From IMG/VR virus record IMGVR_UViG_3300021387_000535, positions 1 to 64,000 of that record: a stretch of 64,000 nucleotides of DNA; one strand, 5' to 3'. How positions within the stretch are numbered: the stretch's first letter is position 1; every line of letters begins with the position of its first letter. Positions 8,587 to 56,879 of this stretch are shown here, piece after piece. This stretch comes from a virus (taxonomy: Duplodnaviria > Caudoviricetes). The notes below the pieces were generated by a model. The model ran no database searches. It saw only the letters and a program-made list of their open reading frames with translations, and was not told the DNA's origin. The position numbers were made by a program, and so were the translations under genes.

Positions 8587-10875
8587 TTATATATCTACCC
8601 ATGTTCCGTTAACTAACTTTTTCACGCCACTATCATCGATACGCAACCCATGATTACCCCAACGGAACAATATACCATCATTATCCATCAAGGCATGGCG
8701 ATTACCTCCAGCGTTTACACAAAAACCATTAGGCGCTATTGTCGTCTTCGTATAAGCAACATTAACAAAGAAATTTGCCACGCCTAATTCTATTGTGCTA
8801 TCGCTACGTCCGTATAAAGTAAAGTTACTCGCGGATATGTTTTTTAAAGCCATCTCAACGTATAAGTAACAATATTCATCGGAGTTGGATACATACTTTC
8901 CTACATTCGTGTATTGTATGTCAAATAGCGAAAGGTTGTCAAACACATCGTCACGGTAAAGCTCGTAATCATTAGTGCTTTCCGCAAGAACCTTCGTGGA
9001 TGTCCTAAGTGTTAGCTTAACGCTTAAGGTAACGCCGTCGCTAAGTATTCTTCCGTATGCGCCAGAAGCGCTTTTCATGGCTATCACAAATCTTCCGCCT
9101 ACACTTTGGCCTACTCCAAGTTGGAATCCAATTTCCCCGTCTCTACGTTCAAGCGGGGTGTCCGCCCATATTGTAGCATTTTGCCCAACATTATATAAGT
9201 TCAATCCACGTCTTTCCCACAATGGATATTCCTTGTCTTCTTTCGGCTTTGTTACATTCCTTGTGCTCATACGAACCCGCTCGTTATTATTGGTGTCGTA
9301 CACAACAACGCCATCTTCTCCCTTGATTGTAACGTTACCTTGAATATCAGCACCAACACAAAACATCCTTCCGTTAATATCAACATAGAAGTTCGTGTTC
9401 GGGTCAATGGCGGTTTCGCCGCCAAGCCACAACGGATAAACCATATCACCCGAAACATTGCCGTCGGCATAGCCAATACCACCCATTACCTTATCTAACG
9501 AAGGGTTGAGTAGTAGGATTTGATTCGTTTGTAAGTATTCTATAAGCGCACGTTGCGCATACAACAAAGGTGTCATTATAGGTGCACCTTGTATCTCGAA
9601 CTCCGACCAATAATAACGCCACGCCGTGCTAATCCCAGGTCTATTGCCGTTGTTGCCGTCGGAACTTATAACACCATTATGTGTTGCTTTTGCATTATAC
9701 CACACGGCACTACCGCCTTCCGTTACACTTACAATATCAAGATACCGATGCCCATCATCGCTTAACATGTTTTCGTCGTAAACATCCTCGTCGTTACGGT
9801 AGTATTTACCTACCTCCCATTCCGATACACGTAAAATCAAGCCCTCGTATCCTTGTGGGCCAGTATCACCTTTGAGACCATCGCTAATAACGGGAATATC
9901 TTCTTCATCGTAGATTCCACCATCGGCGTTGTCAATAAGACGAAGGCGAAGAGATGTCTCGTTGCCAGTTAGTGGAACACCATAGTTGTCAAGGATAGCA
10001 CCGCCAACAATCTGTCTACTACAGTTACTCCATGTCGTGCCACCATCCTTGCTATACTTGGCCATCACTTTCACTCCCGAGCCAATCATCACCAAATTAC
10101 TCACCGTTCCGTCGCTAATCTTTACCGCGCCTACTTCAAGGAACACCGTCGGGGTGCGAACACCGTCCTTGTCAACCTTTATGACATTAAAAGATGGGCG
10201 TAGTTGATACACCTCACTCTTTCGGCTTTTCGTCACCGTGGCCGTGCATGCGCGTGTACCATTCAACGATGTGAGCGTTACAACAACCTTTATAACATCC
10301 GAGTCGGAAGCCGTAAGGTTTTTTACGGTTAACGTTGCACTTTGCCGATTGTTGGCTATAACAATCGTTGCTTTGTTTGTTGTTCTACCATTGATGGTTG
10401 CCGTCGCGGAAGTTATCGCGTCTGGGTTAACGCCATAATACAAACTGGCTATAGTAGTCCAAGTCCAACCAGATGGCGGCGTACCATCACCGTCGCAAAT
10501 GACCATCGTCATGTCATCATCAAGAGATGCGACAAGGGAAGTATCACCATCACTACCTTTAGCACCAGTGATACAAGTGTAGGTTGCATCTCCAGCTACA
10601 TAGTCTTGTATCGAATCATTCCACGTTTGCGGTATGCTACGCATCCACACATAAGGTTTCTCGCTTGTCGGAGACGGCAACGAAGGAGACCATTGGGTGC
10701 AATCTTGAGGATAATCACTTGAACTACCACCAATGATAGCACCAATACTCGAAAGGCTAAAACGTATTTCAGTCCAATCGCCACCTCTTCCGTCGTCGCC
10801 TTTGTCGCCCTTATCCCCTTTTTCTCCGTCGTGTATGGCTACCACGCTAAACGGTGCAGATACTCTTGTTCCCAT
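8587..10875 (-). CDS. Tail fibre / receptor-binding protein
   Basis: 762 aa; collagen-like G-x-x tracts (DGEKGDKGDKGDDG, DGLKGDTGPQG); beta-rich; in tail operon. Confidence 0.7.
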   Translation of the reverse strand: MGTRVSAPFSVVAIHDGEKGDKGDKGDDGRGGDWTEIRFSLSSIGAIIGGSSSDYPQDCTQWSPSLPSPTSEKPYVWMRSIPQTWNDSIQDYVAGDATYTCITGAKGSDGDTSLVASLDDDMTMVICDGDGTPPSGWTWTTIASLYYGVNPDAITSATATINGRTTNKATIVIANNRQSATLTVKNLTASDSDVIKVVVTLTSLNGTRACTATVTKSRKSEVYQLRPSFNVIKVDKDGVRTPTVFLEVGAVKISDGTVSNLVMIGSGVKVMAKYSKDGGTTWSNCSRQIVGGAILDNYGVPLTGNETSLRLRLIDNADGGIYDEEDIPVISDGLKGDTGPQGYEGLILRVSEWEVGKYYRNDEDVYDENMLSDDGHRYLDIVSVTEGGSAVWYNAKATHNGVISSDGNNGNRPGISTAWRYYWSEFEIQGAPIMTPLLYAQRALIEYLQTNQILLLNPSLDKVMGGIGYADGNVSGDMVYPLWLGGETAIDPNTNFYVDINGRMFCVGADIQGNVTIKGEDGVVVYDTNNNERVRMSTRNVTKPKEDKEYPLWERRGLNLYNVGQNATIWADTPLERRDGEIGFQLGVGQSVGGRFVIAMKSASGAYGRILSDGVTLSVKLTLRTSTKVLAESTNDYELYRDDVFDNLSLFDIQYTNVGKYVSNSDEYCYLYVEMALKNISASNFTLYGRSDSTIELGVANFFVNVAYTKTTIAPNGFCVNAGGNRHALMDNDGILFRWGNHGLRIDDSGVKKLVNGTWVDI

Positions 10876-50781: not shown

Positions 50782-50817
50782 AAATATATTTCTTTGTTTT
50801 CATTGTAAAACGTAATG

Positions 50818-50850
50818 CAAAGATAATATATTAAATCACTAAATTGCAAA
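50818..50850 (-). promoter_or_regulatory. Bacteroidetes promoter
   Basis: TTTG-N21-TATCTTTG. Confidence 0.7.
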
Positions 50851-50971
50851 TTTATTAACAAACTACAACATATTTAACTTATTTAAATGTATTTACTAAT
50901 TTAAACTATACACTTATTAAATAAGTATTATATTTATACACACATGCGCGTGTGTACGCGCGCGAGAAAAT

Positions 50972-53197: not shown

Positions 53198-53205
53198 TAT
53201 CTTTG
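53198..53205 (+). promoter_or_regulatory. Early promoter -7 element
   Basis: TATCTTTG followed by CA upstream of the early gene array. Confidence 0.55.
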
Positions 53206-53466: not shown

Positions 53467-54048
53467 ATGACAAAGAAGAATGAAAACAACAGCAAGAGAG
53501 TAAACGAATTCGCAGTAATTAACAATTTGCGCACAAAGTGTGCACCTGTCCACAAAAGTGCAGGCACATTCAACCAGGCGCTGAAAGCACTTCAGGGTCT
53601 GGAGAAGCAATACGAAGAGGTATGTGAGGCGCTCCATGTGGATAGCTTCAAATTTAAGTCTATCTGCGCAGGCTGGTCAGACGAGCTCCGTCTGAATGTA
53701 GACGGGAGGGACGTTATGGGTCTGTATGTGGACGAGGCTGCAAAGATCACCGTCACGACCGAGAAGGGCGAACAGAAGGAGGTGAACATATACGAGCGCA
53801 CTGTCAATAAGAAGGGCGAGGTCAAATTCCGCGCAGTGAAGAGGCGCGTGCTGGCTACTCCCGATATGTGGGATGACGGGCTCATTCTCGAAGGTCTCAT
53901 TCAGTCAGCCATGTTAGGTCTTGCAAAGAAGGAGGCAGAGGTAGCAGAAAAGCATTATAACGACCTGCTGGCCTCTGGCGAGGTGTACATTAAGAAGACC
54001 GAGCACGCCGCAGACGGCAGTAGCAGCATCACCTTCGAGCAGGTATAA
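53467..54048 (+). CDS. First early-region hypothetical protein
   Basis: GC-rich, strongly biased codons; A-rich leader. Confidence 0.7.
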   Translation: MTKKNENNSKRVNEFAVINNLRTKCAPVHKSAGTFNQALKALQGLEKQYEEVCEALHVDSFKFKSICAGWSDELRLNVDGRDVMGLYVDEAAKITVTTEKGEQKEVNIYERTVNKKGEVKFRAVKRRVLATPDMWDDGLILEGLIQSAMLGLAKKEAEVAEKHYNDLLASGEVYIKKTEHAADGSSSITFEQV

Positions 54049-54068
54049 TTATAGCCATGTGGAAAATG

Positions 54069-54167
54069 TGCACGACCGAGCGTGCAGTGAAAAGCAATAA
54101 ATAGGCGTCAGGCTCGGTGCGTTATTACGGGTGCAGTGTGTGCGCGCTGCATCCGTTTTAGGTCGCA
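54069..54167 (+). ncRNA. Pistol self-cleaving ribozyme
   Basis: P1 TGCACG/CGTGCA; loop ACCGAG pairs with CTCGGT; AAATA, TCAGG and GCG core; P2 GCG/CGC; P3; G-G-T cleavage context. Confidence 0.8.
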
Positions 54168-54194
54168 AAATTATTAACTAAAAGCATAAAGAAA

Positions 54195-54383
54195 ATGAAA
54201 GCATTTTTGTTTAAGGTTACACTTGTCAGCGGGCTGGCAGTGTTACAGAGTGGGATCGGTTATAATGTTAACGAGGCTCTTATGGACGCCTGTGATGTGA
54301 TGGCTCAGTGTGGCGAATTGAATGAGGACGAAGTCCAGAGTGTCGAATTAGTAAATACGGAGGAGGAGCGTCATCATGCGTAA
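54195..54383 (+). CDS. Small acidic hypothetical protein
   Basis: 62 aa. Confidence 0.6.
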   Translation: MKAFLFKVTLVSGLAVLQSGIGYNVNEALMDACDVMAQCGELNEDEVQSVELVNTEEERHHA

Positions 54384-54588
54384 CTGGTTTGCAATAATAG
54401 TGCTGAGCGTTATCGGCTTCTTCATGTGTGTGTTGTGTTTGGCGCTCGCAGCCATGTTCGCGCGAGCAGGTCAACAGTGGTGCGCAGGCGGATGCTTTTT
54501 AGCTCTTGTGTGCGTGATGTTTAGCACGGCCACAGTAGTGATGGACGTCTATTTCTATAACGAAAACGTGGATTTTTTCTTAAAGTAA
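54376..54588 (+). CDS. Small membrane protein
   Basis: Two hydrophobic helices. Confidence 0.55.
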   Translation: MRNWFAIIVLSVIGFFMCVLCLALAAMFARAGQQWCAGGCFLALVCVMFSTATVVMDVYFYNENVDFFLK

Positions 54589-54629
54589 GCAAACAATAAT
54601 TATTAACTAAAAACAAAGGAGATTTTATT

Positions 54630-56054
54630 ATGAAGTTCAGAAACATTAGTACGGGTGAAGTATTCAACGTGTCAAACCTTAAGATGCGCGACGGTCGTAT
54701 CTTCTTCCAGGTGCGCGGCAAAGGCTGTGGCACGAAGTTTTTCAACAGGAATGTGTGCCTCGTGCTCGACGAGCATGTAAGTGACGGTACGTACCTCAAG
54801 GTCGCTGACGGCTGGGAGCTGGCCGAGGAGCGCAAGGAGCGCAAGCCGCGTGCACCGAAAGCACCGCGATCACCGAAAGCAGAGTCGAAGGAGCAGGAGT
54901 CCGCGTTCACACTCAACACGCCGCCCACCGAGCCGTCCGTTGAAGCGGTCGAAGTGAAGTCCATCCCAGCAGAAGAAGCCGAGGCGATCGCAAGCGAGCT
55001 CAACGCTGGCGTTGACGCGGAGGCTTTGCGCGCAGAGCTATCAGCAAAGTATGGCACGATGGGCGAGGACATCTTTGTGTATGCAAGTCGTTTGGCTGAG
55101 ATTATTCGTCCCGAGGCGAAGGTGAGTGAAGAGGGCTTAAAGAAGGCTGCCGAGGAGGCCGCAGAGCGCGTTGTGGAAGTCAAAATGACCGAGTGGTCTG
55201 AGCGTGGCCGTTCGTTCGGCACGAAGACTATCGAGGTCGTGTCTCCGCAGGGTCGGCACAAAGTGTCGGGTGCAACGGCAGAAAATTTCGACATATATTG
55301 TAACTTAGTTCAGGCGGGCAAGCCGTTGTACATGTACGGCCCAGCGGGTTCGGGTAAGTCGTACACAGCGAAGCAGATTGCCGAGGCGCTCGGTCTTGAC
55401 TATTATGAGACCTCGCAGGCGATGTTCGCCCACGAGTTGAAGGGCTATGGTGACGCAGCGGGAAAGTTTGTAGAAACGGCATTCTATAGGGCTTTTGCCA
55501 ACGGTGGCGTGTTCTTCTTGGATGAGGTGGATGCAAGCGCGCCAGAGGCGTTGGTTGTATTAAACAATGCAATTGCCAACAAGCGTTTCGACTTCCCCGT
55601 TATCGGCAACATCGAGGCACACGAGAATTTCCGAGTGATTGCAGCGGGCAACACCCGTATGACGGGTGCAACGTTGGAGTACACCGCGCGTCAGATGCAG
55701 GACACATCGTTCAAGAACCGCTTTTTCTTTGAGGTGGTGACCTATAGCCGTGACGTCATGATGGAGATTGCGGGCGGTGACGAGGAGATTGTCAACTTTG
55801 GCGCAGACCTCCGCAGGGCAGCACGCGAAACGGGTATTTCCCAGCTATTCTCATATAGGCAGTGTGCCGACCTTGCAACGTTGCAGGCCGCGTGCAATAA
55901 CGATGACGCACACTTGCTGCGTGGTAGCGTGTTGCAGGAGAAGGAGGTCGACGATGCGCTCAACCTTTACGAACACCTTGAAAACAAGCGTAACCGCTGG
56001 GCAAAGGCGATGAAGAAGTGCATCGAGCATATGAAGACCGAGGAGGTGTGGTAA
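54630..56054 (+). CDS. MoxR/CbbQ/CobS-like AAA+ ATPase
   Basis: Walker A GPAGSGKS, Walker B FFLDEVD, IAAGNT, R-finger NRF. Confidence 0.88.
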   Translation: MKFRNISTGEVFNVSNLKMRDGRIFFQVRGKGCGTKFFNRNVCLVLDEHVSDGTYLKVADGWELAEERKERKPRAPKAPRSPKAESKEQESAFTLNTPPTEPSVEAVEVKSIPAEEAEAIASELNAGVDAEALRAELSAKYGTMGEDIFVYASRLAEIIRPEAKVSEEGLKKAAEEAAERVVEVKMTEWSERGRSFGTKTIEVVSPQGRHKVSGATAENFDIYCNLVQAGKPLYMYGPAGSGKSYTAKQIAEALGLDYYETSQAMFAHELKGYGDAAGKFVETAFYRAFANGGVFFLDEVDASAPEALVVLNNAIANKRFDFPVIGNIEAHENFRVIAAGNTRMTGATLEYTARQMQDTSFKNRFFFEVVTYSRDVMMEIAGGDEEIVNFGADLRRAARETGISQLFSYRQCADLATLQAACNNDDAHLLRGSVLQEKEVDDALNLYEHLENKRNRWAKAMKKCIEHMKTEEVW

Positions 56055-56102: not shown

Positions 56103-56879
56103 ATGTTTAAGAAGTACGAAAGCATTGATGCTATGGTGCGCGACCTCAACCGAATAAGCGGTGGGTACGAGAGCAACTCCACGTCCAACCCAGAATGGTA
56201 CGGGTCGGCGAGTTATGACGAAGCCGTTGACCGCATAAAGCGTGGTGACGATGAACTTGCAAAAAAGCTCAAAGGTAGTGAAAAGCTCGACATACACATT
56301 CCGTCAGCGGGTGTAAAGAAAAAGATTGTCACGCGGGTTGCAGGGTTCGCGCCACATGTTCCTAACTACTTGGCTGGCGTTCCGAATAACATGCTATGGT
56401 GTGTCGAGAAAAAGATTAACAAGAAAGTGTTAACCGTCATCTATGGTTGCAATACGTGGGCATACGAGTCTGCTACCGAGATTGCTCATGTGAGCGCAAG
56501 GGTTGTGTCGTGCATCATGTCGTTGGAGCGCAAAGGCTATCGGGTGCAGTTGTACGCAAGCAACTGCGCCACAAGCGGAAGAAAGGAAACAGGGTTCATA
56601 ACAAAGCTAAAGGACGCAGGGCAACACATTGACGTGTTAAAGATGGCGTTCCCATTATTGAGTGCATCGTGGAATCGTAGGTTTGGTTTCCGTTATCGTG
56701 AAATGTGCGGATGGCACTCGGTGGGTTCAAGCATGGATGGGTACGATCTTAGGGAGTATCTGAGGAGAAACAACGTAACGTATGACGTTGCGTTGAGCTT
56801 CTATGATGCAAAGAACATCAAGACGGTCGAGGAGCTTGAAAAACTCTTCATCGATAAGTCGAGTAAAATAACAAAGTAA
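56103..56879 (+). CDS. VWA-like partner of the AAA+ ATPase
   Basis: GFAPHVPNYLAGVP motif, beta-alpha layout, TKLKDAGQ; directly downstream of the ATPase. Confidence 0.6.
   Translation: MFKKYESIDAMVRDLNRISGGYESNSTSNPEWYGSASYDEAVDRIKRGDDELAKKLKGSEKLDIHIPSAGVKKKIVTRVAGFAPHVPNYLAGVPNNMLWCVEKKINKKVLTVIYGCNTWAYESATEIAHVSARVVSCIMSLERKGYRVQLYASNCATSGRKETGFITKLKDAGQHIDVLKMAFPLLSASWNRRFGFRYREMCGWHSVGSSMDGYDLREYLRRNNVTYDVALSFYDAKNIKTVEELEKLFIDKSSKITK

Follow-up and report, generated by a model that had tools for sequence, protein, structure and literature searches.

Here we describe an intergenic RNA element of a tailed phage which is almost certainly a pistol ribozyme by descent and architecture, and whose connector between helices P1 and P2 measures 17 nt instead of the canonical 7 nt. 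Judging from sequence comparison, we consider it probable that this is a genuine pistol-class self-cleaving ribozyme that processes the RNA of its operon and tolerates the insertion, and we likewise think it likely that the long-linker form itself cleaves at a useful rate. Both the ribozyme class and its phage setting are known, and what is unusual is the architecture of the connector: a linker that has been described as fixed in length and engaged in tertiary contacts carries, in nature, 4 or 10 extra bases with the core otherwise intact. The chemistry of pistols is well understood, far better than their biological role. The window, that is, the whole stretch of 64,000 nt that was analysed, belongs to an IMG/VR record of 72,928 bp, estimated to be 92% complete, which encodes a terminase, a tape-measure protein, a primase-helicase and a sliding clamp; the setting of this phage is that of animal gut and rumen-type metagenomes.

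The ribozyme lies in a spacer of 146 nt between two co-directional genes (Table 1) and carries the features by which pistols are recognised: (i) P1, which has 4–6 bp and a 6-nt loop in the class, is formed here by UGCACG and CGUGCA around ACCGAG; (ii) this loop and the internal loop form a 6-bp pseudoknot in which all six pairs are Watson-Crick; (iii) the junction between P3 and P2, which in pistols is strictly 2 nt long, is usually GU and holds the scissile bond (PMC4604425), consists of exactly two nucleotides, G54162 and U54163; and (iv) the window matches 17 of the 17 invariant columns (UAAAUAG, U, AGG, GCGU and GU) of an alignment of 70 pistols, A1. The connector is the feature that departs from the class, AUAAAUA being present within a total of 17 nt instead of 7 nt. 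An earlier note on this DNA had proposed a pistol at this place, and when the sequence was re-read its positions for P1, the 6-bp pseudoknot, the order of the core and P2 proved exact throughout. The closing of P3 by U54122.G54161 was also as proposed, with a long stem of 12–13 pairs beyond the UU/UU mismatch, and the approximately 10 additional nucleotides that had been placed after P1 are exactly 10 relative to the canonical connector. When positions 54060–54112 are folded alone, the 6-bp P1 is the centroid structure and the insertion is unpaired, while P3 has a predicted stability of -26.9 kcal/mol (z -4.9).

Table 1. The pistol element, its parts and its flanking genes, in window coordinates.
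Feature	Positions	Strand	Description and basis
Upstream gene A, 193 aa	53467-54048	+	ORF list; gene call on identical contig L184; homologues of about 191 aa
Spacer segment AGCCATGTGGAAAATG, running into the P1 5' strand	54053-54068	+	Retained in relatives whether or not the ribozyme is present
Pistol element	54069-54167	+	99 nt; all defining pistol features present
P1 5' strand, UGCACG	54069-54074	+	Sequence, R1 alignment, fold
P1 loop, ACCGAG (5' strand of the 6-bp pseudoknot)	54075-54080	+	Sequence, covariation
P1 3' strand, CGUGCA	54081-54086	+	Sequence, R1 alignment, fold; P1 of 6 bp
Lineage-specific 10-nt insertion in the P1-P2 connector, GUGAAAAGCA	54087-54096	+	Predicted single-stranded
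Canonical connector J1/2, AUAAAUA	54097-54103	+	Sequence, family alignment
P2 5' strand, GGCG (G.A plus GCG/CGC)	54104-54107	+	Sequence, Rfam alignment, covariation
UCAGG; G54111, purine-32 equivalent; G54112, G33 equivalent	54108-54112	+	Alignment; residue roles from PMC6154101
Pseudoknot 3' strand, CUCGGU	54113-54118	+	Six Watson-Crick pairs with ACCGAG
GCG; G54119, C54120 and G54121, equivalents of G40 (general base), C41 and G42	54119-54121	+	Alignment; PMC6154101
P3 hairpin, 40 nt	54122-54161	+	U54122.G54161 closing, UU/UU internal mismatch, then 12-13 pairs and a 4-nt loop
Predicted scissile step G54162/U54163 (2-nt junction)	54162-54163	+	Family alignments; site definition from PMC4604425
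P2 3' strand, CGCA	54164-54167	+	Forms P2 with GCG, and a G.A in addition
Predicted 32-nt leader of the 3' cleavage product	54163-54194	+	A/U-rich, unstructured; TTATTAACTAAAA at 54171-54183
Downstream gene, 62 aa, no known family	54195-54383	+	ORF list, gene calls

At the Rfam gathering thresholds there is no match anywhere in the window. In E-value mode, the Rfam Pistol model (RF02679) gives 26.7 bits, 7.8 bits short of the cut-off of 34.5, with E-values of 0.0047 on 351 nt and 0.87 on the whole 64-kb window, and it is the only plausible family match; hammerhead gives no match to the window in the Rfam scans. In the Rfam alignment a spurious 3-bp P1, taken from 54083-85 and 54094-96, is substituted for the true one, and we attribute the low score to the inability of the model to absorb the 10 bases inserted between P1 and AUAAAUA. 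Annotation at the Rfam cut-off overlooks natural architectural variants such as this one. Pistols were also gathered independently, by core-pattern scans of IMG/VR and of JGI metagenomes, and a covariance model, R1, was made from 70 aligned pistols with the lineage of the window excluded. R1 matches 54070-54167 with 38.3 bits (E about 2e-7), the next best match in the window reaching 11.8 bits; in its alignment P1 is the true one and 'agugaaaagca' is set apart as an insertion. A single occurrence of the core pattern TAAATA-N4-TNRGG-N6-GCGT was counted in the window, against none in 100 shuffles. A second, weak R1 match on the minus strand (50922-50953) was discarded, as it is merely a hairpin followed by TATAAATA, with the core absent.

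These results bear on the idea that an ordinary intergenic hairpin, a terminator or an RNase site happens to match the pistol motifs. Such a chance resemblance would account for the score below the Rfam gathering level and for the E-value obtained over the whole window, but the shuffles, the perfect complementarity of the 6-nt pseudoknot strands and the terminator scan, which does not call P3, speak against it, and it is effectively refuted by the R1 E-value, the canonical homologue found in the same slot and the covariation seen in relatives. That closest relative, present in a Logan assembly (L181) and having an upstream protein 72% identical to that of the window, carries a canonical pistol with P1 ACACG/CGUGU, a loop GCCAUG that pairs with CAUGGU, and a 7-nt connector. 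Its P2 reads the same as in the window (GGCG/CGCA) and its P3 is different yet paired; between the two elements, compensatory changes were recorded in P1, the pseudoknot, P2 and P3. Two pistols from JGI metagenomes (L203 and L214) have the pseudoknot sequence of the window and a normal connector, and two others (L209 and L235) have in common with the window the base of P3, including its internal mismatch. Among 13 related pistols, that of the window included, 90.4% of the cells pair, compared with 29–47% when the partners are slid by 1–3 columns, and double changes are seen in 13 of the 20 pairs of this alignment (five of the six in the pseudoknot helix). In the 70-sequence family set 93.7% of the cells are paired and 15 of 17 pairs have changed on both sides, family-wide values that are inflated by the choice of the sets with scripts requiring P1, pseudoknot and P2 pairing. 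The identity put forward in the earlier note is thus upheld by the sub-threshold Rfam match, the R1 model, the presence of all the invariant positions and a canonical same-slot homologue with compensatory changes.

The ribozyme is dispensable for this group of phages, since most syntenic relatives have none in the slot: the majority of the upstream-protein relatives (L172-L180, L182 and L183) retain roughly 20 bases from the start of the spacer, beyond which lies a 27-codon hydrophobic open frame, with no Rfam ribozyme match in these contigs. Relatives retrieved with the AAA ATPase (L002-L004) have DNA in common with the window only from 54627 onward and no pistol, and the contigs with more distant homologues of the downstream protein (L192 and L193) have none within the short upstream stretch that is retained. 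A blastn search against deposited phage genomes gave no match, and nothing was found when viral contigs were searched with the upstream protein. The 27-codon frame (MLVGTLLCGAVLCCLAC..., for example L172:3606-3689; also in L173-L180, L182 and L183) is probably a real gene for a small membrane peptide, its differences between contigs falling mostly in third codon positions. More speculatively, it might derive from a deleted pistol, as in a MAFFT alignment its flanks (TTATTA... and ...TTTAG) fall opposite the base of P3.

The nearest known system is that of the canonical pistols (RF02679; the env25 and env27 structures 5K7C and 5KTJ; Lysinibacillus sphaericus and Alistipes putredinis, PMC4604425). 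The window has in common with them the 6-nt P1 loop, the 6-bp pseudoknot, the AAA of the connector, P2, the purine-32/G33 pair, G40-C41-G42, P3, the 2-nt G/U junction as the cleavage site (here a predicted one) and the phage-associated intergenic location. It differs from them in three respects: (i) the connector has 17 nt versus 7 nt; (ii) P1 has 6 pairs versus 5; and (iii) P3 is long (40 nt). As to the pistols of the relatives (L181, L203, L214, L209 and L235), that of L181 occupies the same slot after a homologous upstream gene, that of L214 is preceded by the conserved 5' spacer segment of the window, and the TATTAAYYAAAA leader after the cut site is similar; in contrast to the window they have the standard connector of 7–8 nt, and their P1, pseudoknot and P3 differ by compensatory changes. 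Intergenic hammerhead and twister ribozymes, known from bacteria and phages (PMC6765202), are small self-cleaving RNAs which, like this element, lie between co-directional genes, and their proposed outcome is a pair of RNAs that differ in stability or translation; they have a different fold and a different catalytic core. Finally, a pseudoknot-containing hammerhead that mimics the pistol secondary structure (PMC11300833) has the same helix and pseudoknot connectivity, whereas the window has the nucleotides that are specific to pistols (AAAUA, AGG, GCG and the G/U junction).

The long linker pointed out in the earlier note is real, and the lineage of the window is the only one with an insertion among the 84 distinct pistols compared: P1 abuts the 7-nt connector in 72 of them and is one base off in 9, in which the last P1 pair is frayed, and the ten extra bases are confined to this lineage. 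An apparent 23-nt linker in L143 was rejected, since reading by eye revealed a canonical P1 (ACUG/CAGU around CUUGCA) adjoining AUAAAUA. Identical copies of the insertion are present in the L184, L185 and L187 assemblies, some of which perhaps belong to a single project; in L186 it is present with the change A54092T, and a bovine-gut run of 2025 that belongs to another study (X14 record 1) covers it, likewise with A54092T. As it appears in several assemblies and in a run from a separate study, the insertion is real DNA and not an assembly artefact. A variant in a run of the source study lacks 54089-92 and 54094-95, which leaves four extra bases and an 11-nt connector, and has in addition A54075G, by which an A-U pair of the pseudoknot becomes G.U, and a P3 loop longer by six bases. 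Three connector lengths, 7–8, 11 and 17 nt, are therefore found among close relatives. Within the lineage of the window, the variation seen in the ribozyme touches the insertion, the P3 loop and one pairing-neutral position of the pseudoknot, a pattern that, in a small sample, hints at constraint on the core. A relative from the X3 run has no listed differences over 54096-54244 and 22 over 54096-54697. Since close strains differ at few positions, there is little evidence that the core is under purifying selection. We found no published description either of connector insertions or of the placement bias described below in the part of the literature that was searched.

The fixed 7 nt in every other pistol examined suggests a constraint on length, under which the 17-nt version could be slow or dead. 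In the env25 SHAPE study, J1-2 is a 7-nt single-stranded segment whose A19-A21 form A-minor triples with P1 (PMC6101554). The element might be a relic, descended from a canonical pistol, in which stepwise expansion of the connector (7 to 11 to 17 nt) broke the A-minor docking or the fold and put an end to cleavage; it would survive as a young remnant, or its hairpins would serve otherwise, for instance as a 3' stability element for the message of gene A. The invariant connector length of all the other pistols compared, with its tertiary contacts (PMC6101554), speaks for such a loss of function, as do the occupation of the slot by something else in most relatives and the variation of the insertion in both sequence and length. 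We nonetheless regard a relic as rather unlikely: the remaining pairings are perfect, the invariant nucleotides are intact, the listed changes in the ribozyme spare the core, and the insertion is placed at the open end of P1, where, judging from how the fold has been described, extra bases need cause no clash.

A pistol that is active but regulated is a less probable alternative still, and in our opinion a distinctly improbable one. Here the single-stranded, A-rich extra bases would slow folding or bind a protein or RNA, or a hairpin between UGC 54083-85 and GCA 54094-96 would compete with P1, so that the cut fraction would be set, or switched, during infection. The 3-bp hairpin is the one that the Rfam model finds, and three connector lengths coexist in related samples; but this hairpin has just 3 bp and an 8-nt loop and is absent from the centroid fold, in which the 6-bp P1 dominates, and the lack of sequence conservation in the insertion (A54092T and the 6-nt deletion) speaks against a specific binding site. 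Tentative too, and less likely than not, is the proposal that the P1-P2 connector is a natural insertion-tolerant site, in which stepwise expansion through 7, 11 and 17 nt would, in this phage population, keep activity and tune the speed of cutting. If this were true, that speed would determine the share of the operon RNA that is freed as a 5'-OH message with a short, defined leader, and, taken with the placement bias, the role of pistols would become testable as leader-defining processing of phage mRNAs. Should the long-linker form be active, the site could accept engineered insertions, and the 7/11/17-nt series would represent a natural structure-function set.

The reading that we prefer, a genuine ribozyme in which the insertion is tolerated, would work as follows. 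During transcription of the operon P1 would fold first; its loop would then pair with 54113-18 as the pseudoknot, P3 and P2 would close, and the AAA of the connector would dock in the minor groove of P1. G54119, the equivalent of G40, would activate the 2'-OH of G54162 for attack on the G54162-U54163 phosphate, yielding an upstream product that comprises gene A and the folded ribozyme and has a 2',3'-cyclic phosphate at its end, and a downstream product with a 5'-OH, the 32-nt unstructured leader and the 62-aa gene. The 10 extra bases would represent a single-stranded expansion at the solvent-exposed base of P1, expected to loop out because the end of P1 from which they depart is the open one, by which the 5' flank leaves as well; they would be tolerated, perhaps at the price of slower folding or cleavage. 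In this scheme the cleavage chemistry is carried over from the pistol family, in which G40 is the general base, purine-32, G33 and G42 form the scaffold (PMC6154101) and the GU step is in-line (PMC6154101, PMC4604425), and we infer the effect on mRNA stability or translation.

Gene A has no Pfam or PHROG match; beyond the 62-aa gene come a 70-aa gene, a CobS-like AAA_5 ATPase and a DUF7192 protein. On the plus strand, promoter-like TAnnTTTG boxes occur at 53198 and 53245, both before gene A, with none between gene A and the ribozyme and the next only at 56678, and it is plausible that a single transcript runs across the ribozyme. Two contigs of an RNA library from the source sample are identical to 53700-53819 and 53978-54111, the second ending in sequencing adapter; being assembled contigs they do not display RNA ends, and they neither make transcription certain nor carry information on cleavage. 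The sequence TATCTTTG matches the Bacteroidota -7 box TAnnTTTG and recurs in gene gaps (50800-50830 on the minus strand, 53198-53205 on the plus strand). The motif is mildly enriched in the window, with 82 occurrences against 65 +/- 8 expected, and an assignment to a Bacteroidota host is weak because the enrichment is only mild; a scan of genome contigs for the host gave two unrelated MAGs only.

Pistols are frequent near phage genes (PMC4604425), and bacterial hammerheads and twisters have been proposed to process polycistronic RNA (PMC6765202). Starting from 84 loci (L008-L248), we determined, in the pistols with enough flank, how far the cut site lies from the first ATG of the same strand with an open frame of 50 or more codons. 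The cut site lies 18–50 nt before this ATG in 35 of the 63 loci and, after similar downstream proteins are merged, in 31 of 55, most of them at 24–32 nt; in the antisense control the median is 251 nt. P1 begins a median of 27 nt after the upstream stop codon. The window is typical in its placement, with 20 nt between the stop codon of gene A and P1 and 32 nt between the predicted cut site and the ATG at 54195, in agreement with the distance of about 30 nt that had been suggested earlier. This placement fits the proposed role in mRNA processing without proving it, and the statistics give a concrete hypothesis for the function of pistols, namely the definition of a short 5'-OH leader.

The ribozyme travels with the gene that it precedes, because L186 swaps the upstream gene (here of 128 aa) and retains the rest: its mosaic junction lies near window position 54052 (L186:1335-1375 versus window 54030-54068), and the spacer segment, the ribozyme, the leader and the 62-aa gene are unchanged. 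The ribozyme is thus a module that moves together with the downstream gene and its leader, which agrees with, but does not prove, a processing role like that proposed for the hammerhead and twister ribozymes of bacteria (PMC6765202). The spacer segment itself, of about 20 nt (CCATRTGRNAAAATKGCAC, 54053-54073), follows the stop codon of gene A, occurs once per contig and is also found in L172, L180, L183 and L214, conserved whether a pistol or the small frame comes next; it might serve as a promoter, an operator or a processing site. Within the leader, TTATTAACTAAAA is one of two copies in the window (54171-54183 and 54600-54612), each located 12–18 nt before a start codon, and among L235, L209, L214, L229, L172, L192 and L193 the close variants GTATTAAYYAAAA stand directly after the cut site of many pistols and also before genes that have no pistol. 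We take this type of motif to resemble the UUAACUUUA translational-enhancer stretch in the leader of T7 gene 10.

Two other arrangements were observed around pistols. In L181, the pistol is followed by a gene-free stretch of 180 nt with G+C-rich stems (L181:1702-1884), in which a terminator-like hairpin (GGCACG...CGTGCC and then TTTT) precedes the next gene. In several phage contigs, two same-strand pistols are separated by a few hundred bases and lie in successive gene gaps: L204:652-722 and 1406-1477, L208:8926-8992 and 9381-9445, L219:2086-2162 and about 2618-2694, as well as in L152 and L097.
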